50,920 nt of DNA from Anaerolineae bacterium (GTDB taxonomy: Bacteria > Chloroflexota > Anaerolineae > B4-G1 > DUEL01). Under the pieces are notes generated by a model that had not been told where the DNA came from, did no database searches, and saw only the letters and a program-made list of their open reading frames with translations. Shown here one piece after another: positions 2,407-45,480 of the stretch. The DNA lies in contig JANXCY010000015.1 of NCBI GenBank assembly GCA_025060135.1, forward strand, positions 1 to 50,920, given 5' to 3'. Within the stretch, counting starts at the first letter, position 1. The number at the start of each line of letters is the position of its first letter. Made by a program: the position numbers and the translations under genes.

Positions 2407-3521
2407 GCCCTTGGGAAACTGATTGTACCTTTATCCAGAAAGCAATGAGCATGTACACCCGCCGCGAATTCTTGAAAATCTCACTGACTGTGCTGGCCGC
2501 GCTGGCGCCGTGGCCGGGGCAGAGATGGCTCTGGCGGCCCCAGTCCGGCGGGCCCGTGCGCATGGGCCGGGCCATCCGTCCCGTTACCCTCTACGACGCC
2601 CCGAAGCGGGACGCCCGACGCCTGGGCTCCTGGAGCCAGGACGACGTCTTCCCCATTGTCCGGGAGGTGCGAGCCCCTGGCCTGAACGCCTACAACGATC
2701 TCTGGTACGAGACACCCGACGGCTACGTTTTTTCCGCCTGGGTTCAGCCGATGTGGGTCTGGCCTCCGCAACTTCCGGACCTGAACATCGGCGATTGGGG
2801 ATTCTGGGGAGAAGTCTGCGCCCCGTATACCGAGGCTCGAGAGGAGCCCCATCCGGAGGCGAAAAGAGTCTACCGCTTTTATAACGGAACCACCTATCAC
2901 GTGGTGGGATGGGCCCGGGACGACCAGGGCAATATCTGGTACAAAATCTACGACGAACTCCCGCCCACAGGCTACCAGTGGGTCCTGGCCATCGACATCC
3001 GGCGCATAGCTCGACGGGAATTCGTGCCCCTTCGTCCCTTTGCTGGAGCCAAGCGTATAGAGATTGACCTTTCCCGCCAGACGGTAACCTGTTATGAAGG
3101 AACCCGGGTGGTCTTTGCCACTCGTTGTGCGTCCGGCCTCGGCAAGCGGGTACTGGCGGACGGGACGGTGGAGGACCTCTCCACCCCCGAGGGCGACCAC
3201 GCGGTGATCCTGAAACAGGTCTCCCGGCATATGAGCAACCGCCCCCAGAAGCCCGGGGACCCCATGCCAGCGGACCTCTTTGACCTGCCCGGAGTGCCAT
3301 GGAACATCTTCTTTGACCGCAGTGGAGCGGCCATTCACGGGACGTATTGGCATAACGACTTCGGCATTCCCCGCAGTCACGGGTGCGTCAACGTCTCCAT
3401 AGAGGCGGCGCGCTGGATCTACCGGTGGGTCTACCCGGTGGGCGGCGCGGAGGACGATTTCATCCAAGGGGATACACGGGTCGGTACACCCATCCGGATT
3501 TTCAAATCCGGAGATCTTTGA
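2403..3521 (+). CDS. L,D-transpeptidase (YkuD) domain protein with Tat-type signal (RREFLK)
   Basis: C-terminal HGT...SHGCVNV catalytic motif. N-terminal MYTRREFLKISLTVLAALA twin-arginine signal. ATG at 2403 overlaps the GDPD stop (ATGA) and follows AAGGAGG. Alternative start at 2445. Confidence 0.7.
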   Translation: MSPWETDCTFIQKAMSMYTRREFLKISLTVLAALAPWPGQRWLWRPQSGGPVRMGRAIRPVTLYDAPKRDARRLGSWSQDDVFPIVREVRAPGLNAYNDLWYETPDGYVFSAWVQPMWVWPPQLPDLNIGDWGFWGEVCAPYTEAREEPHPEAKRVYRFYNGTTYHVVGWARDDQGNIWYKIYDELPPTGYQWVLAIDIRRIARREFVPLRPFAGAKRIEIDLSRQTVTCYEGTRVVFATRCASGLGKRVLADGTVEDLSTPEGDHAVILKQVSRHMSNRPQKPGDPMPADLFDLPGVPWNIFFDRSGAAIHGTYWHNDFGIPRSHGCVNVSIEAARWIYRWVYPVGGAEDDFIQGDTRVGTPIRIFKSGDL

Positions 3522-4424: not shown

Positions 4425-7370
4425 TCACCCCAACACCCGACGGACCATCTCTGCCAGACGCTCCACCTCAAAGGGTTTGCGGACCACCTCCAGCACCCCG
4501 GCTTGGCGGATGTGTTCCACTTCGGGGTCCTCACCGTAGCCAGTAACGGCGATTATCTTTACCTCGGGATTCTGCCGCCGCAGCGCCTCCACCAGCGCCG
4601 CGCCGCTCATCCCCGGCATGACCACATCGGTGAGCACCAGGTCCACCCGCTCCGCAGCGTACACCTCCAGCGCTTCCCACCCGTTCGCGGCCTCCAGCAC
4701 CCGGTAGCCCAGCCGCTGCAGGATCTCCCGCCCTGCCGCGCGCAGCGTCGCGTGATCCTCCACCAGCAGGATGGTCTCCCCCCGACCGGCATGCAGAAGG
4801 CCCTCGGCCGCGGGCTCCGGAAGGGAAACCTCCTCTACCAGCAAAGGCAGGTAGACCCGGAAGGTCGTCCCCTTCCCCACCTCTGTCTCCACGCCGATGT
4901 GCCCACCGTGTTGCTGGACGATGCCGTAGACCTGCGCCAACCCCAAGCCCGTTCCCAGGCCCCGCGGCTTGGTGGTGAAGAACGGCTCAAAAATGTGAGG
5001 GAGCACTTCCGGTGGGATGCCGGTACCGGTATCGGCAATCTCCAGGCAGACCCATTCCCCGGCTTCCATCCCTGCCAGAGGGGGCTGATCCTCCCATCCC
5101 ACCGTCAACCGGGAAAGCCCCAGACGGACCTCCCCGCCCTGGGGCATAGCATCCCGCGCGTTCAGCACCATATTGATGACAGCCTGCTGTAAGCGGGCCG
5201 GGTCGCCTCGGATGAGGAAGGGCCCCGCCCCGGTAACCAGCCGCAACCGAATGCTCTCGGGAATGGTCCGCTCCAGGACCTTGGTCAGTTCCTTGAGAAA
5301 CGGTGCCAGATCCATGGGGCGGGCTTCCATCGGCGCGCGACGGCTAAAATCCAATACCTGCTGTACCAGCTGAGTGGCCTGCTGGGATTCGCCAATGATG
5401 ACCCGTAGGAACTGGGACAGGTCGGAGGGGAGCCGGGGATGCTCCAGCGCCATCTGGGCATAGAGAATGATGGTGGTGAGAAGATTGTTGAAGTCGTGGG
5501 CGATGCCGCTGGCCAGTTGCCCTACGGCCGCCAGCCGTTCTTGTTGCTCCAGTTGCGCCTGGAGGAACCGCTCCTGGGTGACTTCCCGGACCACCAACAC
5601 CCACCCACCGCTGGGCCCGATGCCCGAGACCGGCCGGGCGGCCATCTGAAAGGTCCGCCGGAGATGAGAGAGCACGACCTCGTGCCAGCCATTTCCGGGT
5701 GGGGCGACCAAGAACTCCTCCAGCGGGCGACCCGCCAGGTGGGTAAGTACATCTCCCGGGTGCGCGTCGGTCAGTACCGGTAGCATCTCCTGCGCCGCCG
5801 GGTTGGTCAGCAGAATCCGATGATCCCCGTCCAGGAGGAGAACGCCTTCGGGGAGCCGTTCTACCAGGGCGGAGAGACGCGCCTCCTGCGCCGCCAGCGC
5901 GGCCCGCAGATCGGCCTGGTAAAGAGCCACGGCCAGTTGGGCGGAGACCTCCTGCAGAATCTCCGCGTGTTCCGTGGTCAGCATGCCCGGGCTGGCAGAA
6001 ACGATGGCCAGCCAGCCCTGCAGTTCACCCCCCACCCGCAGCGGTACCGCAATGTAGGACCGCACGCCCGCAGCCAGCAGAGCCCTCTGGGCCGGAGAGG
6101 GCGAGATGGCAAGAAGATCCGGCACAAAGATGATCTCACCCCGGCGGCTGGCCTCAATCTCCCAGTCCACCCCGGCCAGCGAGAGGCGAAACCCGGGGCC
6201 AATCCGAATCTCGCTATTCATCTGGCTCGCCAGGACCACGCCCTCACCGGTGGCTGGCTGATACGCCAGCACCCCCGCACCACTGCAGGGTACCAGGCGG
6301 CAGATGTACCGAAGCGCCTGGCAAGCCACCTCTTCGGGGGATTGAGCCGCCAGAATGGCCGAGTCCAGCGCCCGCAACGCCTGCAGCCGCTCTGCGTATC
6401 GCTGCAGCGCTTCTTCCGCCTGCTTCCACCCCGAGATCTCGGTGAAGACGGCCAGGGAACCCACGAAACGCCCCATTTCGTCAAAGCGAGGGACATCGCT
6501 GACCAGCACCGGTACCCGCCGTCCATCTTTCCGCAGCAGTTCCAGTTCGTATCGGTCGCTCAGGCCGCGCCTTCGCCGCCGCATGGCAGCCTGTACGATG
6601 GACCGCTGATCAGACGGGATAATAGCGTTTTGGTGCTGGCCGGTCAACTCCTGGGGCTCGTAACCCAGAAGATGCGCAGCAGCCGGATTGACGAACGTTA
6701 TATACCCGGCTTCATCCATTATAATGATGCCCTCGGCCAGGGAGTTGACAATTTCGGCATTGAAGGCCGCCAGGCGCCGCGCCTCCTGAAGGAGGCGGGC
6801 ATTCTGGAGGGCCAGGCCAATTTGAGTCGCCACGGTCTGCAGAAGCGCGGCGTCCTCCGGCGTGTAGGCGGCACGGCGGTAACTCCGGACCTCCAGCAGG
6901 CCTATGACCCGTCCCTCCACGACCATGGGGACGTAGAGGGCGGAACGAGCGCGGGGTTCCCTGGCCACAATGGCGTTGCCTTCTGCACCGGTCGGAGTCA
7001 GGTCGGGAATGATCTCCGGCCGGGCAGCCGCGATGGCCCGACTCCGGCCACTCCGCGCATCCGGGACATGGGCCAGCGGTGGGATCTGGCGGACGTCCAG
7101 TTCGGTCTCCCCCTCTGCCATAAACGCGGTGGTGATGGTCTGCCCCTGAGGGTCCAGAAGAGAGATGCCGAAGACCGGAGCGTCCACCAGCCGCCGTACG
7201 CCGTCCCGCGCGATGCGGTAGATGGCGAGGAGGTCCGGGGCGGCAGCCAGCGCCTGCCCGATTTCGTTGACAACTATCAGTTGTCGGGCCCGGCGCTCCG
7301 CCGCCACCCGGGCACGCATAGCGGCGATGGCCGCAGCAACTCTCTGGCCGATGAGGGTGAGCAGACGCAT
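4425..7370 (-). CDS. Cytoplasmic hybrid sensor histidine kinase/response regulator (GAF-PAS-GAF-PAS-HisKA-HATPase_c-REC)
   Basis: H-box GIAHDFNNLL, ATPase G-boxes DTGTGI / GLGLA, C-terminal receiver LLVEDHA...DLVLTDVVMPGMSG. No TM segments. Confidence 0.85.
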   Translation of the reverse strand: MRLLTLIGQRVAAAIAAMRARVAAERRARQLIVVNEIGQALAAAPDLLAIYRIARDGVRRLVDAPVFGISLLDPQGQTITTAFMAEGETELDVRQIPPLAHVPDARSGRSRAIAAARPEIIPDLTPTGAEGNAIVAREPRARSALYVPMVVEGRVIGLLEVRSYRRAAYTPEDAALLQTVATQIGLALQNARLLQEARRLAAFNAEIVNSLAEGIIIMDEAGYITFVNPAAAHLLGYEPQELTGQHQNAIIPSDQRSIVQAAMRRRRRGLSDRYELELLRKDGRRVPVLVSDVPRFDEMGRFVGSLAVFTEISGWKQAEEALQRYAERLQALRALDSAILAAQSPEEVACQALRYICRLVPCSGAGVLAYQPATGEGVVLASQMNSEIRIGPGFRLSLAGVDWEIEASRRGEIIFVPDLLAISPSPAQRALLAAGVRSYIAVPLRVGGELQGWLAIVSASPGMLTTEHAEILQEVSAQLAVALYQADLRAALAAQEARLSALVERLPEGVLLLDGDHRILLTNPAAQEMLPVLTDAHPGDVLTHLAGRPLEEFLVAPPGNGWHEVVLSHLRRTFQMAARPVSGIGPSGGWVLVVREVTQERFLQAQLEQQERLAAVGQLASGIAHDFNNLLTTIILYAQMALEHPRLPSDLSQFLRVIIGESQQATQLVQQVLDFSRRAPMEARPMDLAPFLKELTKVLERTIPESIRLRLVTGAGPFLIRGDPARLQQAVINMVLNARDAMPQGGEVRLGLSRLTVGWEDQPPLAGMEAGEWVCLEIADTGTGIPPEVLPHIFEPFFTTKPRGLGTGLGLAQVYGIVQQHGGHIGVETEVGKGTTFRVYLPLLVEEVSLPEPAAEGLLHAGRGETILLVEDHATLRAAGREILQRLGYRVLEAANGWEALEVYAAERVDLVLTDVVMPGMSGAALVEALRRQNPEVKIIAVTGYGEDPEVEHIRQAGVLEVVRKPFEVERLAEMVRRVLG

Positions 7371-15266: not shown

Positions 15267-19024
<3,758 letters not shown>

Positions 19025-31261: not shown

Positions 31262-31350
31262 GCCGCAGGCCGCAGGCCTGTGCGTACAGATTAACAGCCT
31301 GCGCCCCAGGCACCGCAGGCCACCGCAGCGCAGGCCTGGCGGCCTGTACC
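31262..31350. repeat. Structured GC-rich repeats: ~45-bp imperfect palindrome (cgcaggcctgtgcgtacagattaacagcctgcgcc, 31266-31308) plus a REP-like unit at 31327-31350
   Basis: A near-copy of the 45-bp unit occurs in direct orientation at 40921-40967. Confidence 0.55.
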
Positions 31351-31645: not shown

Positions 31646-32335
31646 ATGCCCGAGAAAATTCTGGTCATTGACGATGACGAAAACACCCGTCTGTTAATCC
31701 GGCGCCTCCTGAGCCAGGATTATCTGGTCTATACTGCCGCCAACGGCCCGGAAGGGCTGACCCTTTTCCCCCAGATCGCTCCAGACCTGGTCATCCTGGA
31801 TATTATGATGCCCGGTATGGATGGTCGGGAGGTGTGCCGCCGATTGCGACGCACCTCCACCGTCCCAATCCTCTTCCTGACTGCCCTGGACACTGAAAAA
31901 GACATCGTGGACGGCCTGATTGCCGGAGGGGACGACTATCTGGTCAAGCCTTTCGGGCCTGAAGAACTGCGAGCCCGGGTCTTCGCGCTCCTGCGGCGGG
32001 CCCGAATGCCAGCCCCTCAACCAGAGATTCTCCGGTTTGGCAACGGAGACCTCATCATCAACCGGGCCGAGCAGAAGGTCTTCGCCTATGGAAAAGAAGT
32101 TCCCCTTAGCCCCATAGAATACAACCTGTTGCTGTTTATGGCCCAGCGGGCCGGAGAAATCCTTTCCCCGCGCACCCTCTACCGCGCGATCTGGGGAAGT
32201 ACCGAGTCCGATACCAGCCTTCAGGTCGTCAAATGGTATATCTGGCACCTCCGTAAAAAGATAGAGGCCGACCCACGGAAAGCCCGTTTCATCATCACCG
32301 AGTGGGGAAAAGGCTACCGGTTCTCCCCTTTTTGA
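31646..32335 (+). CDS. OmpR/PhoB-family response regulator (REC + winged helix), orphan
   Basis: ILVIDDDE...DLVILDIMMPGMDG and C-terminal GKGYRF wing. Confidence 0.85.
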   Translation: MPEKILVIDDDENTRLLIRRLLSQDYLVYTAANGPEGLTLFPQIAPDLVILDIMMPGMDGREVCRRLRRTSTVPILFLTALDTEKDIVDGLIAGGDDYLVKPFGPEELRARVFALLRRARMPAPQPEILRFGNGDLIINRAEQKVFAYGKEVPLSPIEYNLLLFMAQRAGEILSPRTLYRAIWGSTESDTSLQVVKWYIWHLRKKIEADPRKARFIITEWGKGYRFSPF

Positions 32336-32486
32336 CAGCAGAAGTATCCCTGTCCTGTGTCCCCTGGCATCCCCCGATGCCTCCCCGCCATCCCTGATCA
32401 TCCGCTCCGTTCAACCCTCCCCCGGAAATCTCAAACCGGATTCAAACGACTCCCTGGTTTTTTCCAACCAGATTCCAACCTTCCGG

Positions 32487-32495
32487 TGATATAAT
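32487..32495 (+). promoter_or_regulatory. Candidate extended -10 (TGATATAAT) in an AT-rich island upstream of the first giant gene
   Basis: TGnTATAAT read directly. No good -35. Two ttccaacc direct repeats just upstream (32462-32480). Confidence 0.4.
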
Positions 32496-32638
32496 CCAAA
32501 ATGAACCCGGGCAATTCTCAACGCGGCGATTGGTTGTAAATCAAATATAAGAAATAAATACGGAGGAAAAAGAACATGGGCGGGTGGGAGCGTCTCATTC
32601 CGTTGGCCGATGCCAGATACCCAGAAAGGATACAACCA

Positions 32639-35600
32639 ATGAGGCGATTATCTCTTAGTGTTTTCATCACCCTGGGCATGGCACTGGTAGCCTTCGGCCT
32701 GGCGGCCTATCTGGCCCGTCCGGTATTGGGGCAATCCGCTTCCTGCGCAGTGCAATACACCGTGCGGAACGATTGGGGTACCGGCGCAACGGTCGATGTG
32801 GTCATTTATAACTATTCCGGTTCCCCCATCAACGGCTGGACTCTGACCTGGACTTTTCCCGGCAATCAGCAGATAACGCAAATGTGGAATGCCACGTACA
32901 CCCAGAATGGGCAGAACGTGGCAGCCACGAACGTGGATTACAACGCGACGATCCCGGCCAACGGAGGATCGGTCAATTTCGGATTCAACCTTGCTTATTC
33001 AGGAACCAATGGGAGTCCGACCAATTTTGCCTTGAACGGCCAGGCCTGTACGCTGGCCGGAGCCACACCAACGCCAACCGCAACCCCTACTCGCACACCA
33101 ACGCCAACCGCAACCCCCACTCAGACGCCGACACCTACACAGACACCGCCAAGTACCCCTCCCCCTACGGCTACACCGACTCCCACATCCACGCCTGTAC
33201 CCACTCCCACGCCTGTTATCTCCAATACTATTGGGGTGAATAAAACCGCCCTGCCGGCTCCCGGATGCCGGGAGTACACCGTAACGCTGAGTGTGACCGG
33301 CAACCCACCCCCCAAGCCGGTGGACGTCATCCTGGTGATTGACCGCTCCGGCAGCATGAATGAGCCCATCCCAGGCGATTCCAAGAAACCCATAGATTAT
33401 GCTAAAGAGGCGGCCCTCGCCTTTGCCCAGCAGATTCTCGCCAACTCCAACAACCGGGTGGCGATTGCCAGTTATTCCGATTCCGCTACGCTGAACCAGG
33501 GTCTGACCAACAACCTGACCGCTATACAGAATGCCATCAACGGCCTGAGCGCGAGTGGCTATACCAACATCCAGCAGGGCTTTTACGTCGCCCGCATGCA
33601 TATGCAGAGCGAGGGCCGTCCCATCACCACTACGGCCCGGGCCATCATTTTCCTGACGGATGGGGTGGCGAATCGCTCCGGAAGCAACCCGGTAACCCAG
33701 TGTGATACGTGGCCTACTACTCACACGACCTGTACCATCGCGGCCTATACCGAAGGGCAAACCGCTCAGTCCCAGGCGGTGATCTTCACCGTCGGACTGA
33801 TGGGCGCGATCACTCCCACCTACCAGAGTTCCTACTGGGTGGCCCGCGACACCCTGATCCGGGCCCAGAACGGCGGCTACTGGGAGACGCTCAGCGCGGC
33901 GAATCTAACCGCCATCTACAACCAGATTGCCACCCAGGTGAATCCGGCAGCGCTGGAAGCCGTGGCGACCGATGTGGTGGCTCAGGGCTTCCAGATCGTT
34001 CCCGGTAGTCTGAGCACCCCCCAGGGCACGGTGACCACTAACGGGAACGTTATCACCTGGACCCTGGGCACGGTGGTGAGTGGAACGGTCACGCTGACCT
34101 ATCGGGTGGTGGCGCTTCCGGGATATTCGGGTTCTCTGCCCACCAATGCCTCCGGTGTGCTGAAGTATGAGGACATCTATGGCAGCCAGCATCAGTTGTC
34201 TTTCCCGGTACCCACTGTGAATGTGCCGACCGATCTGGTCGCCAATGCCGGGCCGGATCGTCAGATTTCTATGGGCGGTTCGGCCCAGATCGGTGGGAAT
34301 CCTACTGCATCGGGTGGAATTCCGCCTTACACCTATAATTGGACACCCTCCACCGGCCTGAGCTGTACCAATTGTCCCAATCCCACCGCCTCGCCGACTC
34401 AGGATACGACCTACACTGTGAGCGTCTGCGATAGCGATGGCTGTGAGGCAACCGATAGCGTCTTCGTGGATGTTCTCCCCCAGGTCGCGCTTCACAAACG
34501 CGCGGCACCGACCAGCCGGCCTGAGCCTGGCGGCGTCTTTACCTACACGCTGACCATCACCAATACTTCCTCCGAAGCGGTAACCATCATCAACCTCAGC
34601 GATACATACCCGCTGAGCACACAGTGCCAGAATCTGGTGAGCACCTCCCTGGCCTCCGGAGCCTCCGTCTCCTGCCAGTACACGAGGGTCCACACCCTGC
34701 CCGCAACTTACAATAACACCGCCACGGTGACGGTGCGGGATAACGAAGGGAACGCAGCCTCCGCTCAGGCCAGTGCTTCGGTGCAGGTTACAGATGTCGT
34801 TCCTACCCCGGCCAACGTGGCCGTCGTTAAGGACGCCAATCCCACCAGCCTGCCAGAGCCTGGTGGCCGGGTGACCTTTACCGTGCAGGTAACCAACAAC
34901 TTTATAGAGCCGCTGACGCTGACCAGCCTGGTGGACAGCGTGCACGGCAACCTGCACAATCGGGGCACCTGCTCGGTCCCGCAGACCCTCCCGGTGAACG
35001 GCTCCTACACCTGCTGGTTCACGGCCACCGTCTCCGGCAACGCCGGGTACGTGGAGACGGATGTGATTACGGCAACGCTGCGGGACGATGAGAACAACAC
35101 GGTGCAAAAGTCGGACGACGCAACGGTAACGCTCACCGACGCGCGGCCCTCGGTCTCTATCGTCAAGACAGCGTCGGTCTCCAGCATGACCGAGCCCGGC
35201 GGAGTGGTGACCTTCACGCTGACGGTGGCAAACACCTCCGTTGAGACGGTGACCATCACCGTCCTCACGGATACCTACCCGCTGAGTTCGCAGTGTCAGG
35301 CGCTGATAGGTCGGGCGTTACCTCCGGCTGGTTCCGCATCCTGCCAGTATGCGGTGACGCTGACCAATGCGGGCGCTTACACCAACGTGGCTTCCGTGAC
35401 GGTGCGGGACGACGAGAACAACCCGGCCACTGCCACCGATAATGAGACGGTCACTATTGTAGACCGGAAGCCCACCGCGGCGGACGTGGAGGTGGTGAAG
35501 GACGCCAACCCCACCAGCGTGGCCGAGCCGGGCGGCGTGGTCACCTTCACGGCGCGGGTGACGAATCGGTTCGTGGAGCCGCTGACGCTGACCAGCCTGG

Positions 35601-37375
35601 TGGACAGCGTGCACGGCAACCTGCACAATCGGGGCACCTGCTCGGTCCCGCAGACCCTCCCGGTGAACGGCTCCTACACCTGCTGGTTCACCGCCACCGT
35701 CTCCGGCAACGCCGGGTACGTGGAACGGGATGTCATTACGGCGACACTGCAGGACGACGAGAATAACCTGACGGAGGATTCCAACAGCGCGGAGGTGGCA
35801 GTTGCCGGTATCCGCCTGACCAAGTCGCCTGATCCGGCCATCGTCCACGCAGGCGATAGCGTCACTTACGTTTATACGGTGACAAATCCGGGCGTAAAGG
35901 CCCTCACTGTCCAGAGCCTCACGGACAATCGCTGCAGCCCGGTCGCTTTCCGGAGCGGAGACACCGATGGAGATAACCGGCTGGATCCGGGCGAGACTTG
36001 GGTCTACACTTGCCAGCAGACGATTACTGCGGACACGACCAACATCGCCACCGTGGTCGGTGTGGATGAGGGCGGAGCCCGGGTCACGGCCCAGGCCACA
36101 GCCTTCGTGGACGTCATCACGCCGGCGATTGACGTCTCCCTCTCCGCACCGCTGACCACCACCAGTGGCGTCTTGCTGCCCTACACCATCGTCTTCACCA
36201 ATACCGGCGATACGCCGCTCTATAACGTCGTGGTGGCCGATGACCTCACCGGCTTTGTCTGGACCGGCACGCTGGCGCCAGGCGAAAGCCATACCTATGG
36301 GGTCAGTTACACGGTCCAGACGGGCGTGGTCGGCCCGGTGATCACCAACACGGTAACAGCGACCGGCACGGACAGGCTGGGTAAGACCGTCCGGGATACT
36401 GACTCGGTCGTTACCCTCGTGGTGGTGGACGAGGACGCGATCCCAGAGGGCCCAGAGGACAGCGGCGACATCGACGGCGATGGCATTCCCAACTACTGGG
36501 ACCTGGATGACGACCAGGATGGCATCCCGGATGTCCAGGAAGGCTGGGACGATACCGACGGCGACAGCATTCCGGATTGCCGCGATAGCGACTCGGACAA
36601 CGACGGCATCCCGGATGCCATAGAGGGCTGGACCGACACCGACGGTGACGGCATCCCGGACTTTCGCGACCGGGATTCAGACAACGACGGGATCCCGGAT
36701 GCAGTTGAGGGCTGGGACGACCTGGACGGCGACGGTATTCCCAACTTCCGTGACCTGGATTCGGACGATGATGGCATCCCAGACGCCGTAGAGGGCGCAG
36801 TGGATACCGACGGCGACGGCATCCCGGACTTTCTGGACTGGGATAGCGATGCCGACGGCATCCCGGATTCCATTGAAGGCTCCGAGGACGCCGATGGCGA
36901 CGGGCTGCCCAACTTCCGCGACACCGATTCCGATGGGGATGGGATCCCGGATGCTATAGAGGGCTGGGGCGACACCGACGGCGACTATGTGCCCGACTAT
37001 CTGGACCAGGACAGCGACAACGATGGAATCCCGGATTCGGTAGAGGGCGCGGGTGACGCCGATCGGGATGGCACCCCCAACTTCCGCGACCTGGATTCCG
37101 ATGGCGACGGCATCCTGGATAAGGACGAGTATAGCGAGGGAGCCAGCAATCCGCTCGGCTGGTGCCCGCCCACCCATTCGGTCTGCTTCAACAACGACGT
37201 GGACGGCGACGGCATCCCCAACTTCCTGGACACCGACTCCGACGGCGACGGGAAACCGGACCAGGACGAGGGCACCGGCGATACCGACGGCGACGGTATC
37301 CCCAACTGGCTGGACCGTGAAGACCGCCGCTGGTTCCGGGTCTACCTGCCACTGGTCATTCGGATGAGCCAGTAA
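32639..37375 (+). CDS. Giant secreted multidomain protein: signal peptide, CBM2 carbohydrate-binding module, Pro/Thr linker, VWA domain, 4 DUF11-type repeat modules, ~12 Asp-rich TSP3-like Ca-binding repeats, conserved C-terminal [11 protein letters not shown] tail
   Basis: Signal peptide [29 protein letters not shown]2 region [14 protein letters not shown]...[16 protein letters not shown] linker. VWA motif [15 protein letters not shown]11 repeats [17 protein letters not shown]. Repeats of [27 protein letters not shown]. The ORF track start 32576 is an alternative. Confidence 0.85.
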
Positions 37376-37394
37376 GAAGAGGGATAGGGAGAGA

Positions 37395-37446
37395 GGTGAC
37401 AGTCACCGGGCCGGGTGACTGTCACCTGATTTTTGTCAATTTTTTT
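37395..37446 (+). terminator. Intrinsic terminator: 13-bp perfect stem ggtgacagtcacc/ggtgactgtcacc, loop gggccg, then a T-rich tract
   Basis: Each arm is itself palindromic. Followed by tgatttttgtcaattttttt, then the AAGGAGG RBS of the next gene. Confidence 0.7.
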
Positions 37447-37460
37447 AGAAGGAGGTCCTC

Positions 37461-40400
37461 ATGGCTCAATTCCGCAAATCACTGGTGATGCTTCCGGTTC
37501 TGCTGGCCCTGGCGGCTCTGGTGTTCCTGCTGACCCTGAACGCTCCACCCACCCGGGCGAACGGAGGTTGTACTTTCACCGTGAACTCTACAAGCGACGC
37601 TGGCGACGCGAACCTCGGCGATGGGCAGTGTAATGATGGCACAGGAAAGTGCACGCTGCGCGCCGCGATTCAGCAGGCGAACATCTCTCCCTGCTCCGGC
37701 CACGACACTATCCAATTTTCCACGGCCATATCCGGCCAGGTCATCACGATATCCTCAGCGCTGGACCTGCTGGATGAAGATGGGGTCACCATCAACGGCG
37801 ACATCAACGGTGATGGCCGACCGGACATCCGGCTGCGGTATGGATCCGGTGAGATCAGCGGCCTCCGCGTCCGCTCGTCCAACAACGTGATCCGGGGCCT
37901 GAGTATCGGGGGCTTTCCCTCCGGCGCGGCGGGTATCTACCTCCAGGGTACCGCCTGGGCGGTGAACAGCAACACCATCATCAGTAACTTCATCGGCGTG
38001 GACCTGGATGGGACAACCGCCGTTTCCAATGTGACGGGCATTTACGTAGAATCCGGCCTCAGCGGCGCGGCGGGCAACGTGATCCGGGGCAACCTGGTCG
38101 CGGGCAACAGCGGGCGCGGCATCGCTGTGGAGGGACCGGCCACCGGCACGCTAATTATCGCGAACCGGGTTGGCACTAACCTGGCTGGCACCGCGGCGCT
38201 GACCAATACTGGGAGCGGCATCTGGATCAGCGCGACAGTGAGCGTGACGGTCCAGGAGAACCTGGTCTCGGGCAACAACGGCAACGGGATTTCCATCTAC
38301 AGGGCCCAGAATACCGCCGTCCTGAGCAACATCGTGGGCCTGAACGCGGCCGGAACGGCGGCGCTGCCCAACTTGGGCACGGCGGGGATCCTGATTGACC
38401 AGAACGCCAGCGGCACCACCCTGCGCGGCAACACCGTCTCCGGCAACCGGAATAACGGTATCTACCTGGGTTCAGGCGTGACCGGGACGGTCATCGCCGG
38501 CAACCGCATCGGCACCAACCCGGCCGGCACGGTAGGCATCGGGAACGGGATCGCCACGAACCGGGACGGCATCCAGATTGACGGCGCCTCCAACACCACC
38601 GTCGGTGGCCCTAACCCCGGAGACCGCAACATCATCGCCGCGAACAAGCGAGCGGGCATCCTGATTGCCGGTGATACCGCTGACAACAACGTCATCCAGA
38701 ACAACTACATTGGCACCGACGTGTCCGGCCAACTGGACATTGGCAACGGCTACCCTCTAACCGTAGAGGATACCGGCCACGGCGGCATCTACATCGGGGA
38801 TGGCTCGGATAACAACCTGATCCAGAGCAACCTTGTTCGTTTCAACTACATCGGTATCCGCTTCTCGGGCGTCGGCAATATCCCGCCACAGGGCAACCAG
38901 GTTCTGAGCAACACCATCACCAATAACGACATGTACGGCATCGCCAGCCGGGTGACGCACAATAACACCAGCCGGCCCACACCCGCAGGCGGCGATACCC
39001 TCATCGCCCACAACGTCATCACCGGAACCGGCTACCCCGCGATGGGCACCGGCATCGGCATCTACAACCTGGGCGCCTCGCCACATATCCTGATGAACAC
39101 CATTGCGTCCAACAAGGACATCGGCATCGTCAACCGGGTGGAGTTTGGTGTAGACGGTCCGGCGAACGCCTCAGACGACATCCTCTCAGTCCCGTACATC
39201 TTCGGGAACACCATTGACGGCAACGGGAACGACGGCATCCAGTCCCGGGATACAGCGCCGCTCAACCGGTACACGCTGCACGTGGATAACAACATTGGCA
39301 ACAACAACGGCCAGCCGGACGTCTCCCAGCGCTGGTTCGGCGCGGTGGAGGCGATCACCGGTACTCAGCCGATTATCGCTGGCCTGGTGGTGACGGTGAC
39401 CAAGACCGGGGGTGTCGGATCCGCCTGCGCGGTGGGCGCCTGCTCGGGCAACGTCCAGGACGGCGGCGCATGGGGGCCGGCGGGCTTTGTCTACACCGAC
39501 GTGGAAAAGCCCGATGGCACCAGCACCTGGTTTGAGATCATTGAGTTTGAGATAGAATGGGATGGCCGCTGGATCACCTACACACCCCACTACGTCCAGG
39601 TCGGTGGAGCGCACGGGGGCGCGCGGGCCTTCTCCTTTGACGGCGTCACCACCACCCAGGAGGTTACCGGCGACGTGGGCCTGCCCACCTGCATCCCGAC
39701 CGGTATCCTGAACAACCCGCAGCACTCCTTCTGCCGCTACCAGATCGCGCAGGTGCGGGTCTATCGCCCCGGTACAGATGAGGACCAGGACGGCATCCCC
39801 AACGAGCAGGAAGGGACCGGCGACACCGACGGCGACGGCATCCCCGACTACCTGGACACCGACTCCGACAACGACGGCATCCCGGACGCCGTGGAAGGGA
39901 CCAGGGACACCGACGGCGATGGCATCCCCGACTTTCGCGATCCGGATTCCGATAACGACGGCATCCCGGACGCCGTGGAAGGGAACGTGGACACCGATGG
40001 CGATGGCACGCCGGATTACCGCGATACCGACTCGGACAACGACGGTATCCCGGATGACGTAGAATACGATAACTGCCAGACTCCGCCCTGCGACGCCGAC
40101 GGCGATGGCATCCCCGATTTCCGCGAGCGGGATAGCGACAACGACGGCGTGACCGACAACGCCGAAGGCACCGGCGACACCGACGGTGATGGCATTCCCA
40201 ACTACCGGGATACCGACTCGGACAACGATGGCATCCCCGACGGCCAGGACCCCGATGACGACGGCGACGGTATCCCGGATACAGCAGAAGGGCTGACGGA
40301 TAATCCGGGCAACGACTGGGACTCCTCGGTGGACACCGACGGCGACGGCCTGCCGGACTATCTGGACCGCGATAGCGACAACGACCAGGTGCCGGACTGG

Positions 40401-40805
40401 ATGGAGGCCGGGTGCACGCAACAGCCCTCCGGGAATCAGACCTGCCCCAATCCCAACCGGGATAGCGATGGCGACGGGAAACCGGACCGCCTAGATAACG
40501 ACGATGATGGGGATGGCATCCCGACGGCGAACGAATACTACGCCGGTTCCACCGACCAGCCCTTCTGCACCGATCCCGCTGGGCTGGATACCGACCGGGA
40601 CGGCACCGTCAACTGCCAGGACAACGACGTGGACGGCGACGGCATCCCCAACTACCTGGACCGGGACTCGGACAACGACGGCACACCGGACCGGAACGAG
40701 AGCACGACCCAGCCCAACCCGCCGCCGTTCGGGCATGGGAATGTCCCGGCGTGGATTGATCCGATGTGGCGGATCTATCTGCCGCTGGTGCTGCGGAACT
40801 ACTGA
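37461..40805 (+). CDS. Giant secreted protein: signal peptide, CSLREA-type N-terminal motif ([11 protein letters not shown]), right-handed parallel beta-helix repeats, ~14 Asp-rich TSP3-like repeats, conserved C-terminal [11 protein letters not shown] tail
   Basis: Signal peptide [24 protein letters not shown]. Repeated NxxxGNxxxGNxxxGI beta-helix rungs. [15 protein letters not shown] repeats. C-terminus aligns with the upstream giant protein. Confidence 0.85.
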
Positions 40806-40843
40806 TTCGCATTTGCGTCCTTCCACGCCGCTGTTGTTGAACC

Positions 40844-40876
40844 AAAAGCCGGGGGCTGTGGCCCCCGGCTTTTTGA
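40844..40876. terminator. Bidirectional intrinsic terminator aaaagccgggggc-tgtg-gcccccggcttttt
   Basis: 9-bp GC stem flanked by A and T runs, in the convergent gap with the response regulator. Confidence 0.75.
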
Positions 40877-40920
40877 TGCGAGCATGTCCGCAAAAGCCTG
40901 CTCTCCGAGAATGGAGCGGT

Positions 40921-40967
40921 GTACCGCAGGCCGCCAGGCCTGTGCGTGCAGGCTCACAGCCTGCGCC
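40921..40967. repeat. Second copy of the ~45-bp structured repeat (ccgcaggccgccaggcctgtgcgtgcaggctcacagcctgcgcc)
   Basis: Direct-orientation near-copy of 31266-31308. Confidence 0.55.
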
Positions 40968-41164
40968 ACGCCATCTTTAGCATTATTGAGTCCCCTCCAA
41001 AAGCCCGTTTCACCGCCGAGACGCAGAGCACGCAGAGGCTTTATTGGAGAAGCCTGCGCGCTCGGCATCTCTGCGGTGAGTTTTTGCAGTAGATTCACAT
41101 TTTCAGATTTGCTCTTCAAAGGGAGTTTACGGCAGTCCAAGGTGGCCGCCAAACTGCACACGGC

Positions 41165-41863
41165 TCACTCGGGGGAAAAGAAATATCCCCGCCCCCGTTC
41201 GGTGCGGATAAACCGGGGCCGATGAGGGTTATCCTCTATCTTCTGCCGGAGACGGCAGATATACCACTTCACCTGCCGGATGTCGGAACTGCTATCTGGC
41301 CCCCAGATGGCCTGATAGATGGCTTCCGGGGAGAGAACATACCCGGCCCGTTCCGCCAGGAACAGGAGCAGACCGTACTCCGTGGGGCTGAGCGGGACTT
41401 CTTTCCCCCGCAGGAATACCTGTCCCAGATCACGATTAATGACCAGGTCTCCTCTTCCGAAACGGAGCACTCTTTGTGGCGATGCCCGTAATTGGGAGCG
41501 ACGGAGGAGAGCCCGGATCCGGGCAACCAGTTCTGCGGGGTGGAACGGTTTGACCATGTAGTCATCCGCTCCCCGGTTCAGTCCTTCCACCACTGCCTCC
41601 ACGTTATCCACTGCGGTCAGAAACAGAATGGGGACCGGAGACTGGCGCCGGATGCGCTGGCAGACTTCTTTCCCATCCAGCCCGGGCATCAGGAGGTCCA
41701 GGATGATCAGGTCGGGGGCGACCTGATTCAGGGAATGGAGAGCGGTGGCCCCATCGGAGGCTGTGTACACGGCGAACCCGTGGGCCTCCAACAGGGTCCG
41801 CAAGATGGTCAGAATTTCCGGATCGTCGTCTACCACCAGAATGCGTTCTTTTTCCCGGCTCAT
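41165..41863 (-). CDS. OmpR/PhoB-family response regulator, paralog of 31646-32335 (~60% identity), orphan
   Basis: ILVVDDDPE...DLIILDLLMPGLDG ... GRGYFF. Confidence 0.85.
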   Translation of the reverse strand: MSREKERILVVDDDPEILTILRTLLEAHGFAVYTASDGATALHSLNQVAPDLIILDLLMPGLDGKEVCQRIRRQSPVPILFLTAVDNVEAVVEGLNRGADDYMVKPFHPAELVARIRALLRRSQLRASPQRVLRFGRGDLVINRDLGQVFLRGKEVPLSPTEYGLLLFLAERAGYVLSPEAIYQAIWGPDSSSDIRQVKWYICRLRQKIEDNPHRPRFIRTERGRGYFFSPE

Positions 41864-41890
41864 ACTGGTAACCTTTCTACTGGGGTGGCG

Positions 41891-42814
41891 TTATGGAGCG
41901 CTCCATGCACACAGGACCTGCCGGATGGCCTCCTGCCATTCGGGAGGGGCGTTTCGCATCCGCCGTCGCATCCCGATGAGGACCAGTACCCGGGCCAGGT
42001 AGCGAGTGAGCGGCCCGTGATGGCGGGCGTAGAGCCGCGCCCGGCTGGTCCACAGGTGAACGAAGGAGGAGATGGGAACCTGGCCTGTGGAGCGTCCGGC
42101 GTGATGGACCACCCGCGCGGCCGGGACGCAGAGGGCCTTCCAACCGGACCGCCGCATCCGCCAGCACCAGTCAATCTCTTCGCAGTAGAGGGGGTATCCC
42201 TCATCCAGCAGTCCCACGTCCTGCACGGCCTCCGTGCGGACCATCATCGCCGCGCCCAGTGGGTGGTCTACCTGGAACGGGGTCTCTCGCTCATAGAGGT
42301 GGCGCGGGTAGCGGCCATTCAGCGGGCTCTCGTAAAGACGGGAAGGAAGAGGGAAGAGGTCAAACACCAGTTGGGCCAGTCCCGGAAAGCGGAAAGCGGA
42401 ATGCTGGAGAGAACCGTCCGGGTAGAGGAGTTGGGCACCGGCCACGCCGACGCGGGGACGGGCCTCCATCGCGGCGACGAGGGCTGCCGTTGCGCCGGGG
42501 AGGACTTCGGTATCGGGGTTCAGCAGCCAGAAGTAGCGGGGTGGGGTCGCCTCCAGGGCAGCCCGGATGGCCAGGTTATTGGCAGCGGCGAAGCCGGGGT
42601 TATCCCGCCGGGCCATCAGGCGGACCGTGGGGAACGCGCGGGCAATAGCCTCCGGCGTGCCGTCGGTGGAGCCGTTATCCACCACCCAGAGATCGGCGAG
42701 GAGGTCCGCTCGTTCCAGGTCGGCCTGAAGGGAACGCAGGCAGGCCATCAGCAGGTCCCGCACGTTCCAACTGACAATGATAACGGTCAGCGTTAAGCCC
42801 GAAGGCAGTAACAT
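41891..42814 (-). CDS. Family 2 glycosyltransferase
   Basis: VIIVSWN, VVDNGSTDGT, EEIDWCWR. Confidence 0.8.
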   Translation of the reverse strand: MLLPSGLTLTVIIVSWNVRDLLMACLRSLQADLERADLLADLWVVDNGSTDGTPEAIARAFPTVRLMARRDNPGFAAANNLAIRAALEATPPRYFWLLNPDTEVLPGATAALVAAMEARPRVGVAGAQLLYPDGSLQHSAFRFPGLAQLVFDLFPLPSRLYESPLNGRYPRHLYERETPFQVDHPLGAAMMVRTEAVQDVGLLDEGYPLYCEEIDWCWRMRRSGWKALCVPAARVVHHAGRSTGQVPISSFVHLWTSRARLYARHHGPLTRYLARVLVLIGMRRRMRNAPPEWQEAIRQVLCAWSAP

Positions 42815-42823
42815 CGATGCAAT

Positions 42824-44896
42824 CTACGGAATCCGGAGTTCTGGATACGGTGGACGGGGATGGAAAACGCCTCGCAGGGTGGAGATAAAGGACTGCCGGG
42901 CCAGGTTCAGTTCCTCCATCGTGATGGGGCATTCGTCCAGTTGACCCGTACGCAGGGCCTGGGCGAACACTTCCTCCACCACCCCGACCAGTTCCTCCGG
43001 CGTGGTAGGGCGGCGGGCCCGCACGGTGGCCTCACAGCGGTCCGCCAACATCACCAGCGCCGTTTCCCGGCTGCGGGGACGCGGGCCCCGATGGCGAAAA
43101 TCCGCCTCGTTGACCCATGCGGGGTTGCCCGCATGCTCCAACGCCCGCTCGTACTGGAATCCTGCGCGGCTGGTCCCGTGGTGCTCAGCGATGAAAGCCC
43201 GAATCCAGGCGGGCAGATGGTAGCGGCGAGCCAGTTCCAGCCCATCCTGGACGTGGCCGATGATCACCTGAGCGCTGGTGTGTGGGTCTAACCGATCGTG
43301 AGGGTTGGTACCCTCCAGTTGGTTTTCTGCAAAGAAATAGGGACGGGCGATTTTGCCGACGTCGTGATAATAGGCCCCCACCCGCACCAGCAGGGGGTTG
43401 AGGCCGATCTGTTCGGCAGCCTGTTCGGCCATACTGGCAACCATCAGGGAGTGGTGGTAGGTACCTGGCGCTTCCCGTAATAGCCGCTGGAGCAGTGGCT
43501 GGTCCGGGCGGCTCAGCTCCAGGAGCCGGAAGGTGGTGGGCAGGTCAAACAGAGGGCCCAGGAGAAAAAGGCCGGCCAGGGCCAGGCTGGCGGAGGTGAG
43601 CCCGTTGGCGATGGTCCCCGCCATGGCCAGCCCCAGCGAAAGGAGGTCAGGGTGCGGGGCGAAGAGGGCAAAAGCGACCATCGTCGCGAGCATCGTCAGC
43701 GCCACCATCATTCCGGCGCGGAAGAAAACGGCCGGGCGGTCGCTCTGACGCACGGCCAGCGTGGCTGCGATGCTCCCGAGGGCCCCAGCGGTGAGGAATT
43801 CCAGAGAACGGTCCGCCAGCAGGCCAGCCACCCCTCCGATGAAGATACCGGCGACCAGGCCCGCCGGTGCACCCAGGGTGCCAGTTGCCAGCATCGCCAG
43901 CGCTGGGGCCGGAAACATATACCGCAAAACGGTCCGGTCGGGCACCATCAGCCGGGCCAGGGCCAGGAAGAGGAGTATCAGCAGCACCAGCAGAAGCGCT
44001 TTACGTCCCTCTCGCAACACGTCTGGCTGGAAGCGAGCCAGGAGACCGCCGAGCATCAGGACACTCAGGATGGAGAGGACGCCGTTTCCAGCCAGTTCGG
44101 TCCACCGGGTGCGGGATTGCTGGAGTCCCAGTTCCTGCAGCGCTTCTAAGTCCAGTGCGCTGACCCGCTGCCCTTCCCGAACGATGATTTCGTTGGCCTC
44201 CAGGGTTCGGACAACCGGCGGGACGGCCTCCCGGGCGGCCTGACGGGCCTGCCGGGTGGCTTCCTCGTCGTAGAACGAATTGGGGACGATAAGCCGCTGG
44301 GCCAGGGCAGTGGTAACCGCAGCCTCATCAGCGGAAAGGTCCAGCCCAACCCGCTCGGCGGCCTGCCGGCGCGCCGAATCCAGGTCGTCTTCCCGCACTC
44401 CCCGGCGCATCGTCTCCGCGATGACGTTGAGGACTTCCAGTTGCACCCGGTTCCAGGATTCGTCGGAGAGAGCCGGAAGCAGGTCGGCGACAGCGGGAGG
44501 AAGGCCCTGGAGTTCCGGTACCGCGAGCGTCCAGGCCCGCCGCTGGGCGGGCGTGGCAAAGGGGTCGGCCCGGACCGCGCCCAGGTAGTCCAGGACCTGG
44601 CGCGCGCGCTCCAGTTGCTGCCGGGCCAGGTTCGGGTCCGGCGCCGTATAGACTGGAGGGACAGCGGCTTCTGCCTGCTGTTGCTGTTCGGCGGTGCGGA
44701 TCGCGCTCTCGTAGGTGATGCGGCGCGGGGCGCGGATGTCCTGGGGTGCCACATCGCCGACTTCCAGCACCACGCGGCCGGAGGGAAGCAGAGGAACAGA
44801 GAGAAAGAAGGTGCTGGCGATGACCAGCAGGAAAGCGAGAACCGCCAGCCGTACCCAGAACCACCAGGGTTGCTCGCCCAGGAATGTCCTCTTCAT
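42824..44896 (-). CDS. 7TM-receptor-linked HD phosphohydrolase (7TMR-HDED + 7TM + HD domain; PgpH-like)
   Basis: Extracellular N-domain, 7 TM helices, HD motif HHSLMVA...YHDVGK. Confidence 0.8.
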   Translation of the reverse strand: MKRTFLGEQPWWFWVRLAVLAFLLVIASTFFLSVPLLPSGRVVLEVGDVAPQDIRAPRRITYESAIRTAEQQQQAEAAVPPVYTAPDPNLARQQLERARQVLDYLGAVRADPFATPAQRRAWTLAVPELQGLPPAVADLLPALSDESWNRVQLEVLNVIAETMRRGVREDDLDSARRQAAERVGLDLSADEAAVTTALAQRLIVPNSFYDEEATRQARQAAREAVPPVVRTLEANEIIVREGQRVSALDLEALQELGLQQSRTRWTELAGNGVLSILSVLMLGGLLARFQPDVLREGRKALLLVLLILLFLALARLMVPDRTVLRYMFPAPALAMLATGTLGAPAGLVAGIFIGGVAGLLADRSLEFLTAGALGSIAATLAVRQSDRPAVFFRAGMMVALTMLATMVAFALFAPHPDLLSLGLAMAGTIANGLTSASLALAGLFLLGPLFDLPTTFRLLELSRPDQPLLQRLLREAPGTYHHSLMVASMAEQAAEQIGLNPLLVRVGAYYHDVGKIARPYFFAENQLEGTNPHDRLDPHTSAQVIIGHVQDGLELARRYHLPAWIRAFIAEHHGTSRAGFQYERALEHAGNPAWVNEADFRHRGPRPRSRETALVMLADRCEATVRARRPTTPEELVGVVEEVFAQALRTGQLDECPITMEELNLARQSFISTLRGVFHPRPPYPELRIP

Positions 44897-44901
44897 CGTT
44901 G

Positions 44902-45480
44902 TTACGGAGCAAAGAAAACCATGCCCACGTCCATCTGCTCCAGAGCCTCTTCGGCGTAGCAGGCGACCAGCGCGCTGGGGTCGTCCAGTGCGGCACAGAG
45001 GGCAGGGATGGCCTCTGCGGGCCGGATGATGCCCAGGGCGCGGGCCGCACCGGCCCGGACAGCCACGTCAGGGCTCCCCAGGGCAGCGATCAGGGCAGGG
45101 ACAGCGGGTGCTCCCATGCGGGCCAGCGCGTCGGCGGCCAGCCGGGCCACGTACGCGGAGGGATCGGAGAGACGGGCTACCAGCGGCTCCACCGCTTCCG
45201 GCGGGCGCCATTCGGCCAGGGCGACGACCGCGCAGGCCCGGACGTCCGGGTCGGGGTCGTCCAGCGCGGCGATGAGCCCCGCCACAGCCCGAGGAGTACC
45301 CACAGCCGCCAGGGCCCGGACGGCCCACCAACGGCGGTCCCGGTCCGAGGATGCCCGCCAGACCTCCAGAACGGGCAGGCTCGTATCGCCCAATGCCCCC
45401 ATCTGGCGGGCGGCTTCCTCCGCCCGGAGGTCATCGCCCGCCACGATCGCCTCTTCCAGTGCGCGCAGCAGTTCGTGCAT
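44902..45480 (-). CDS. HEAT/PBS-lyase-like repeat protein
   Basis: Repeated AxxALGxIgdpxAvpaLiaaL DPDxxVR units. Confidence 0.7.
   Translation of the reverse strand: MHELLRALEEAIVAGDDLRAEEAARQMGALGDTSLPVLEVWRASSDRDRRWWAVRALAAVGTPRAVAGLIAALDDPDPDVRACAVVALAEWRPPEAVEPLVARLSDPSAYVARLAADALARMGAPAVPALIAALGSPDVAVRAGAARALGIIRPAEAIPALCAALDDPSALVACYAEEALEQMDVGMVFFAP

Follow-up and report, generated by a model that had tools for sequence, protein, structure and literature searches.

The DNA considered here, 50,920 nucleotides of contig JANXCY010000015.1 from an Anaerolineae bacterium of the phylum Chloroflexota, is referred to throughout as the window, and the locus of interest occupies its positions 31646-41863. 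Two very large genes, giant-1 and giant-2, encode proteins that end in the same short C-terminal motif, the YLP-box, and they lie between two genes for response regulators, RR1 and RR2. The list of open reading frames (ORFs) confirms all four genes at the positions given in the initial annotation, which had been made from the sequence alone. The features of the locus, with the strand in brackets, are as follows.

31646-32335 (+), RR1, 229 amino acids, OmpR/PhoB-family response regulator with receiver and winged helix (ORF list; Pfam Response_reg, Trans_reg_C)
32432-32447 (+), distal direct-repeat pair CAAAC-N6-CAAAC with an 11-bp period, putative regulator site (pattern search, cross-locus alignment)
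32464-32479 (+), proximal direct-repeat pair CCAAC-N6-CCAAC, putative regulator site, starting 32 bp after the distal pair
32490-32495 (+), TATAAT -10 box with no matching -35 hexamer, 10 nucleotides after the proximal pair (sequence reading)
32576-37375 (+), giant-1, 1599 amino acids from the first ATG, fibrillar-adhesin-like
about 32639-32731 (+), alternative start of giant-1 (32639) and putative signal peptide, by inspection
32744-33049 (+), CBM2 carbohydrate-binding module, then a Pro/Thr linker (Pfam CBM_2, E 6e-31, residues 57-158)
33323-33703 (+), VWA domain (Pfam VWA_2 and VWA, residues 250-376)
34496-36445 (+), Ig-like stalk of DUF11 (CLIPPER) and DUF7507 (CLIPPER_2) domains (Pfam DUF11 three times, DUF7507 four times; TIGR01451 five times)
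36460-37320 (+), Asp-rich, thrombospondin type-3 (TSP3)-like Ca-binding repeats of giant-1, 28-residue period
37331-37363 (+), YLP-box of giant-1, three residues (MSQ) before the stop
37394-37427 (+), intrinsic terminator or attenuator between the giants, 14-bp stem and T-run, fold z = -6.8
37461-40805 (+), giant-2, 1114 amino acids, CSLREA/parallel beta-helix protein
39815-40705 (+), TSP3 Ca-binding repeats of giant-2 (Pfam TSP_3, 33.5 bits, cutoff 25; repeat families D1-D6)
40767-40796 (+), YLP-box of giant-2, two residues (NY) before the stop
40844-40873 (both strands), bidirectional terminator hairpin with A- and T-run flanks, z about -3.7 to -3.9 on both strands
41165-41863 (-), RR2, 232 amino acids, OmpR-family paralog of RR1

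The YLP-box can be written as the consensus aromatic-R-[VIL]-[YF]-L-P-[LIV]-[VI]-x-[RK], placed 0-5 residues from the C-terminus. In both giants the tail reads as first described, a shared short C-terminal motif after which no hydrophobic stretch or transmembrane (TM) helix follows, and a six-frame search of the window yielded no such tail motif beyond those of the two giants. The two copies differ synonymously (TAC/TAT, CCA/CCG, GTC/GTG), and it is therefore the peptide and not the DNA that is conserved; the box is also kept in nearly all giant-2 orthologs, at 41-74% identity (orthologs P0002-P0015). The claim that the tail is unassigned, by contrast, had to be given up. Two NCBIfam models, NF050076 (sort_motif_YLP; 11 positions, cutoff 15 bits) and NF053834 (ultrashort_CTERM; 10 positions, cutoff 10), which carry one and the same product name, "YLP-box putative sorting motif-containing protein", are both passed by the isolated tails of giant-1 (20.9 and 16.9 bits, respectively) and of giant-2 (17.9 and 16.1 bits), and a match to a known sorting-domain model is the very outcome that the initial annotation had named as speaking against its claim. 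The YLP-box is already known to NCBI curators and was not discovered at this locus.

The spread of the motif was followed by a scan of GTDB, with one genome per species and a degenerate DNA pattern for R-x-Y-L-P-L-V-x-R, which returned at least 119 loci. The matches listed include 39, of the at least 119, that fall within one mycobacterial ORF (acyltransferase-like, a function inferred from its motif) in which the pattern is internal; this ORF (L003, L005, L011, L016 and about 35 others; Mycobacteriaceae) holds LASNHLAV.DSFYLPLVVRRR internally and is the main false positive for YLP-box patterns. When it is excluded, 63 of the 80 other listed matches lie no more than 25 codons from the stop, against 11% expected (P about 1e-44), and in 60 of these 63 C-terminal matches 0-5 residues follow the final Arg, a range that covers the two or three residues found in the giants. 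The C-terminal matches listed belong nearly all to Chloroflexota (Anaerolineae, Thermoflexales, Chloroflexia, Chloroflexaceae or Oscillochloris records), and a signal-peptide-like N-terminus is present in 26 of the 36 complete ORFs with a YLP-box, as judged by a hydrophobicity heuristic. The carriers are mutually unrelated and comprise M23 peptidase plus Laminin_G, BNR, PD40, LVIVD, SBBP, Big_1 and beta-helix proteins. The search for further proteins with the tail, which had been proposed as a check, thus brought up many unrelated Chloroflexota carriers, and the suspicion that the tail is confined to two paralogs proved false. Among the carriers there are also very small proteins (L080, L109, L111; also L020, L040) in which the signal peptide is joined to the box by about 60 residues where S-x-NY-x-L / G[YF]WCG features recur; the one at L080 shows a weak match to the NCBIfam model "CPR-type pilus protein PamT" (27.7 bits versus a cutoff of 240).

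The position of the box with respect to known domains is informative as well. In five of ten proteins tested it directly follows a "choice-of-anchor" domain, an NCBIfam class of domains that stand before different C-terminal sorting signals in different lineages: choice-of-anchor Q stands before the box in four proteins (81, 40 and 29 bits at a cutoff of 25, and one below it at 21 bits) and choice-of-anchor Z in one (74 bits). In three close homologs of a C25 peptidase that carries the box itself (P0337, P0349 and P0353; see below), Dockerin_1 is found in place of the YLP-box, dockerin being a non-covalent anchoring module. Taken as a whole, these results give indirect support for a YLP-box that behaves like a sorting or anchoring signal. 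According to the AlphaFold2 models, the box is an exposed linear peptide, neither a membrane span nor part of a fold, because the predicted local distance difference test score (pLDDT) is below 50 for residues 1100-1114 of giant-2, which hold the box, and for both boxes of the C25 peptidase; on the same values a structural strand that docks onto a domain was rejected as an explanation. With seven hydrophobic residues and a central Pro it cannot span a membrane. Its most likely role would be to retain or attach the carrier, after export by Sec, at the atypical cell surface of Chloroflexota, where the box would fill the slot taken in other phyla by PEP-CTERM, LPXTG or type IX secretion system (T9SS) signals, and in some homologs by dockerin.

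A candidate for the enzyme that might act on the box lies outside the window. In a Thermoflexales metagenome-assembled genome (L060, 2470-5409, minus strand) a YLP-box occurs internally in a C25 peptidase of 970 amino acids with a signal peptide, the catalytic half of which matches the NCBIfam model NF033707, "T9SS sortase PorU", at E 1.5e-64 with 218 bits versus a cutoff of 420, a score at which the Chloroflexota C25 family counts as PorU-like rather than as an equivalog. The best match in PDB by sequence (E 3e-31) and the best match in Foldseek (E 4e-27 over 828 columns) are both PorU, the N-terminus matches the gingipain prodomain, and the two catalytic residues, His in G-H-S-S-W-Q-Q and Cys in T-C-F-T-G-A-F, are invariant (112 of 112 members) and align with the PorU dyad. 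The family proteins (P0121-P0389) measure about 950-1000 amino acids and bear only the NCBI name "C25 family cysteine peptidase"; 332 homologs were found at E <1e-10, the top 120 at 47-100% identity, and a library clustered at 50% identity holds 10,319 representatives at E <=1e-30. Nearly all members end in N-R-T-I-V-P-W-x-x-x-[VI]-[FY]-L-P-L-V-x-R, with L in 107 and P in 109 of 112. The strict box pattern is present in 85 of the best 150 of the 10,319 representatives, more being box-like by eye, and relatives of 1100-2077 amino acids retain the box in spite of their long C-terminal extensions. About one third of the members have a second YLP-box, in an insertion of about 15 residues just before the catalytic domain. 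The neighbourhoods of four C25 genes are housekeeping contexts with no conserved partner, and a taxonomy look-up of ten diverse representatives returned one "Chloroflexi bacterium".

In the T9SS, PorU bears the C-terminal signal itself and also takes it off the cargo proteins. The PorU-like C25 cysteine peptidase is a reasonable candidate for the processing of the YLP-box because of this parallel, as here too the enzyme itself carries the tag; that it recognises and processes the box is the likeliest processing mechanism, but nevertheless a tentative proposal. The same caution, at the same level, applies to its fuller form, by analogy with PorU, in which the YLP-box might be the recognition tag of a Chloroflexota-wide PorU-like C25 peptidase that cleaves or transfers tagged surface proteins, with the internal box possibly serving as the peptidase's own activation site.

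It is just as possible, if again somewhat doubtful, that no peptidase or transpeptidase acts at all, and that the box is a non-covalent retention peptide, comparable to dockerin or to S-layer homology domains, which binds the wall, the sheath, an outer layer or a receptor. The replacement of the box by Dockerin_1 in the close C25 homologs, the exposed linear nature of the segment and the lack of a dedicated enzyme gene beside the carrier genes in the clustering of YLP loci all agree with this reading, and boxes that lie internally, with domains after them, fit binding better than cleavage. Ten residues, of which seven are hydrophobic, would however make a very short anchor for specific binding of high affinity, a candidate receptor was not found, and the strong preference for the extreme C-terminus resembles that of processed signals.

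A number of observations weigh against the YLP-box as a C-terminal sorting or anchoring signal, and against a C25 peptidase as its partner. When the whole proteins are scanned, giant-1 reaches only 14.1 bits with NF050076 (E 0.03), just under the cutoff of 15, and for giant-2 no NF050076 match is reported. The literature search found no paper on the YLP-box, its sorting, cleavage or attachment, and the NCBIfam name itself says "putative"; searches on YLPLV-type strings, on Chloroflexi sorting signals and on PorU in Chloroflexi gave nothing relevant. Signal peptides were called by the hydrophobicity heuristic and not by a trained predictor. All-against-all clustering of the ORFs in 80 YLP loci of 8 kb gave no recurrent neighbour but beta-helix carriers, no processing enzyme was found in the window, and the link to C25 is built on the homology to PorU and on the tag of the enzyme, a tag that many secreted proteins also carry. 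Finally, about 13 Chloroflexota matches are internal, with further domains after the YLP-box, which a strict C-terminal signal would not show; the box is therefore a marker of where a module ends, which need not be where the protein ends. The long secreted proteins with internal boxes (L001, L012, L053, L088, L078, L106, L110, L024 and L045) continue after the box with YD/RHS repeats plus a toxin-like end (L001, L012), with Pro/Thr linkers (L053, L088) or with additional domains that are CBM- or CARDB-like by eye.

The two carriers in the window differ in their N-terminal parts. The length of 1578 amino acids first given for giant-1 is correct for the start at 32639, whereas the first ATG, at 32576, gives 1599 and has a good Shine-Dalgarno sequence (GGAGG) 9 nucleotides upstream. 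Pfam and NCBIfam bear out the domain order originally read from the protein, namely CBM_2, Pro/Thr linker and VWA, then DUF11 in three stretches together with DUF7507 in four. The stalk contains an internal duplication of 669 nucleotides (repeat families D7/D8), and the Asp-rich repeats follow an 84-nucleotide (28-residue) period over 36466-37120, with extra copies to about 37320; with TSP_3 they score 16.3 bits, below the gathering cutoff of 25 of Pfam PF02412. Giant-1 probably binds a polysaccharide or a surface, because it presents CBM2 and VWA heads on an Ig-like stalk.

Giant-2 is built in the order signal peptide, CSLREA, right-handed parallel beta-helix, low-confidence region, TSP3 repeats, YLP-box. 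The CSLREA motif and the parallel beta-helix, both proposed earlier, are recovered as CSLREA_Nterm (30.4 bits, cutoff 25) and as Beta_helix/NosD matches of Pfam and NCBIfam. The AlphaFold2 model is confident for residues 38-620, a right-handed beta-helix, and gave no usable model for residues 626-786. The nearest folds in Foldseek, at low identity, are alginate C-5 epimerases and lyases, phage tailspikes and the PfbA adhesin, and the NCBI product name says beta-helix protein only. The structural model supports giant-2 as a putative polysaccharide-binding or polysaccharide-modifying beta-helix protein, and nothing more precise.

What the giants have in common, besides the box, is the preceding module. 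Their C-terminal stretches of about 300 amino acids are 53% identical, and the DNA of the last repeat units (repeat family D3) is 86% identical. The repeats of giant-2 have the same 84-nucleotide (28-residue) period, over 39809-40705, and the view that both proteins carry shared Asp-rich Ca-binding repeats was borne out, although only giant-2 passes the Pfam TSP_3 cutoff. Inspection and the hydrophobicity heuristic both point to Sec signal peptides at the two N-termini. By sequence, these results support both giants as exported, adhesin-like or polysaccharide-related proteins with a common Ca-binding repeat module: both would leave the cell by Sec, as their N-termini suggest, with the shared TSP3 module running straight into the YLP-box.

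The arrangement of the genes was compared with that in six related loci with giant-2 orthologs (L120, L122, L124, L125, L126 and L127, the last cut off upstream). In all six the giant-2 ortholog is directly preceded by a large adhesin-like gene, the heads of which vary (CLIPPER/CLIPPER_2, or Big_1, SdrD_B, SpaA, TED) and the end of which always consists of TSP3 repeats and a YLP-like box. An OmpR-type regulator of 229 amino acids stands before the gene pair in five of the six readable loci (window, L120, L124, L125 and L126). The identity to these syntenic regulators in L120, L124, L125 and L126 is 61-70% for RR1 and 54-57% for RR2, and on sequence grounds RR1 is the one that corresponds, by synteny and orthology, to the regulator ahead of the pair in the related loci. 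In L120 (13300-14397), L124 (11352-12431) and L125 (11852-12889) the gene next downstream of the giant-2 ortholog is a radical SAM gene, which is not present in the window.

The promoter-like sequence that had been noted between RR1 and giant-1 can be described more closely. It was found by eye and then confirmed by pattern search and by alignment across loci, and it consists of a TATAAT box with conserved repeat pairs in six loci. The pattern CMAAC-N6-CMAAC (CMAACNNNNNNCMAAC) has three matches in the window, against 0.29 expected, two of them upstream of giant-1. The common layout in the six loci is TTTCTCAAACCgnATTCAAACC, about 12 nucleotides, TTTTGCAAACCGGATTCAAACC, about 10 nucleotides and TATAAT; the position of the repeat sites is shared by the window and five other loci, and a TATAAT, TATGCT or TACAAT box aligns in six out of six. 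The spacing of the pairs is exactly 32 bp in the window, L120 and L124, and the 32-bp spacing is also seen in L122, which has three pairs. The proximal pair sits where the -35 hexamer of giant-1 would be, and it is the absence of this hexamer that left a consensus promoter scan without a sigma-70 site ahead of giant-1. Activators of the OmpR/PhoB family classically use direct repeats with an 11-bp period that take the place of the -35 hexamer. Very probably, then, as read from the sequence, an OmpR-type regulator controls the promoter upstream of giant-1, and in the proposed mechanism phosphorylated RR1 would activate it by binding to the two tandem direct-repeat pairs beside the -10 box. Two points tell against this control: L122 has no adjacent regulator and yet keeps the repeat sites, and binding is deduced from the sequence arrangement only.

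The strong terminator between the giants and the bidirectional one after giant-2 were both confirmed by folding. A hairpin after giant-1 is also present at the same place in L122, L124, L125 and L127. In the window it probably lowers read-through, and giant-2 would be expressed by read-through at a lower level, because the hairpin (37394-37427) sits about 30 nucleotides before the giant-2 ribosome-binding site.

RR1 and RR2 both consist of a Response_reg receiver and a Trans_reg_C winged helix (Pfam), and their best NCBIfam matches, RpaB and MtrA, are below the equivalog cutoffs. They had been described as convergent orphan regulators, about 60% identical, that bracket the cassette; the orientation is right and the identity was measured as 56%. 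It is unlikely that the two form a functional bracket that jointly controls both giants. Their similarity extends to near-identical recognition helices (VKWYIWHLRKKIE versus VKWYICRLRQKIE), so that RR2 could bind the same repeats, and there could be room for more than one dimer on two or three tandem site pairs. Against this, no second regulator lies downstream of the giant-2 orthologs in the six related loci, the next genes there being a radical SAM gene, a kinase gene or others, and RR2 is less similar than RR1 to the syntenic regulators. RR2 is moreover the last gene of a tightly spaced minus-strand string (41165-45480), made up of a HEAT-repeat protein, a 7TMR-HDED/HD receptor, a family-2 glycosyltransferase and RR2 itself, which suggests that it may belong to a different signalling unit. 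The bracket is thus probably a coincidence of neighbourhood, because RR2 is absent from the related loci and closes another operon, beyond the bidirectional terminator that separates it from giant-2; RR1 is the only one of the two that is syntenic and orthologous. As to a partner kinase, no kinase gene is present between about 22400 and 50794, so that the absence of a kinase noted earlier holds for the immediate neighbourhood but not for the window as a whole, whose sole kinase is a GAF-PAS-HisKA-HATPase-REC hybrid at 4425-7370 (minus strand), about 24 kb from RR1. In L120, L122, L124, L125 and L126, GAF-HisKA kinases recur at a distance of 2-8 kb from the gene pair.

The DNA around the cassette is of the housekeeping type, with the his operon and two TrkA genes upstream and the glycosyltransferase, the 7TMR-HD receptor, a pseudouridine synthase and isoleucyl-tRNA synthetase downstream (window annotation). 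Rfam and tRNA scans of the whole window gave no matches. A GC-rich, hairpin-forming direct repeat of 33-45 nucleotides (CAGGCCTGTGCGTRCAGNNTNACAGCCTGCGCC) has two copies, 88% identical, one intergenic upstream of RR1 (31273-31305) and the other downstream of giant-2 (40935-40967), which flank the block of RR1, giant-1 and giant-2; there is no third copy in the window, and the repeat may be a repetitive extragenic palindromic (REP)-like element. Other genes of the window encode a CHAT-WD40 protein (16718-19024, minus strand) and a YkuD L,D-transpeptidase (2205-3521, plus strand); the latter was considered as an attachment enzyme and set aside, its presence in the window being the sole support.

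With respect to the box, two further explanations carry less weight than those given above. The YLP-box might be a second-step export signal across the atypical outer layer of Chloroflexota, following the logic of the T9SS C-terminal domain (CTD), and not an anchor, which appears improbable. The carriers do have Sec-type N-termini, as counted above, the envelope of Chloroflexales is diderm-like, without lipopolysaccharide or Bam (PMC7332563), and the PorU-like enzyme that carries the tag has its counterpart, PorU, at the end of such a route in the T9SS; but no translocon candidate was seen, the T9SS CTD is a folded domain of about 80 amino acids versus a linear motif of ten, and Roseiflexus appears to be without an outer layer, yet the box is present in Chloroflexia records. 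The notion that the shared tail reflects mere ancestry of a duplicated 3' end in two paralogs, with no function of its own, can be dismissed, for although the C-terminal modules are homologous and the last repeat units are closely similar in DNA, the box ends dozens of unrelated Chloroflexota proteins that lack the TSP3 module, is kept in orthologs down to 41% identity, matches curated hidden Markov models and differs synonymously between its copies, which means selection at the protein level, so that its distribution has already refuted the idea.

As a whole, the locus is best explained, with good though not full confidence, as the local copy of a unit conserved in Anaerolineae, in which RR1 is followed by a large fibrillar-adhesin-like protein and then by a CSLREA/beta-helix protein, the latter two with shared YLP-box tails. 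The regulated adhesin or polysaccharide-binding surface system envisaged in the initial annotation survives in its export, its shared module, its sorting-like tag and its promoter of the response-regulator type, while the unassigned tail and the two-regulator bracket do not. New here are the breadth and positional statistics of the YLP-box, its placement after choice-of-anchor domains and its exchange with dockerin, as well as the conserved three-gene unit with its promoter architecture and a candidate enzyme for the box. Sludge, sediments, soils and hot springs harbour Chloroflexota in abundance, and the envelope of these bacteria is poorly understood. A phylum-wide, ultrashort tag on dozens of secreted proteins per genome would mark the surface proteome and points to an undescribed sorting route, for which this locus supplies a well-defined pair of carriers with a conserved regulator and a readable promoter architecture. 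If the link between C25 and the YLP-box is true, the surface proteins of uncultured Chloroflexota would become predictable from sequence, and PorU-type sorting, that is, T9SS-style "sortase" chemistry without a T9SS, would exist outside the T9SS.

In comparison with known systems, the giants agree most directly with the NCBIfam YLP-box family, as in both the motif stands at the very C-terminus with no TM helix beyond it, the N-terminus is signal-peptide-like and the lineage is Chloroflexota, and no difference in kind is apparent. The promoter resembles those of the PhoB/OmpR type in its direct pentamers, arranged as two tandem pairs of 11-bp period that end 10 nucleotides upstream of TATAAT, and in the lack of a -35 hexamer; the Pho box differs from the repeat sequence of the window, C[AC]AAC, and the sites in the window are predicted ones. 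The fibrillar-adhesin plan of CLIPPER (DUF11) proteins consists of a signal peptide, adhesive heads, a stalk of tandem Ig-like domains and a C-terminal sorting element (PMC12617251), and giant-1 is alike in all four, with its signal peptide, its CBM_2 and VWA heads, a stalk of three DUF11 and four DUF7507 domains, and the YLP-box. It differs in its anchor, since fibrillar adhesins use LPXTG, OmpA-like or archaeosortase signals, and giant-1 instead has a TSP3 array and the YLP-box. The Myxococcus MtsC-type proteins (NF047638) are like the giants in having TSP3 repeats directly before a lineage-specific C-terminal tag; their tag is MYXO-CTERM, their N-terminal domains and phylum are different, and the match of the model to giant-2 is weak (E 0.0018, 17 bits against a cutoff of 350).

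The tripartite signals, namely LPXTG with sortase, PEP-CTERM with exosortase, PGF-CTERM with archaeosortase, GlyGly-CTERM with rhombosortase and MYXO-CTERM with myxosortase, begin with a signature motif, continue as a TM helix about 15-20 residues long and close with a basic cluster. Like the YLP-box, they tag the C-terminus of many secreted proteins that are unrelated to one another but belong to one lineage, and they are placed after choice-of-anchor domains. Unlike them, the YLP-box has seven hydrophobic residues flanked by Arg, with the protein end 0-5 residues further on, and the Pfam and NCBIfam scans of both giants gave no match to any of these five models. The same scans found no T9SS CTD (Por_Secre_tail / TIGR04183) in either giant, in which TSP3 repeats precede the tail; the T9SS CTD is a beta-sandwich, whereas the YLP-box is a short linear motif. 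The Chloroflexota C25 enzyme differs from PorU in that it lies below the cutoff of the PorU model and is not encoded in the window, and its link to the cargo is here a candidate one. In its general plan the T9SS of Bacteroidota, with PorU, is nonetheless similar, since it likewise combines Sec-exported cargo that bears a C-terminal tag with a multidomain C25 peptidase that carries a tag of the same class.

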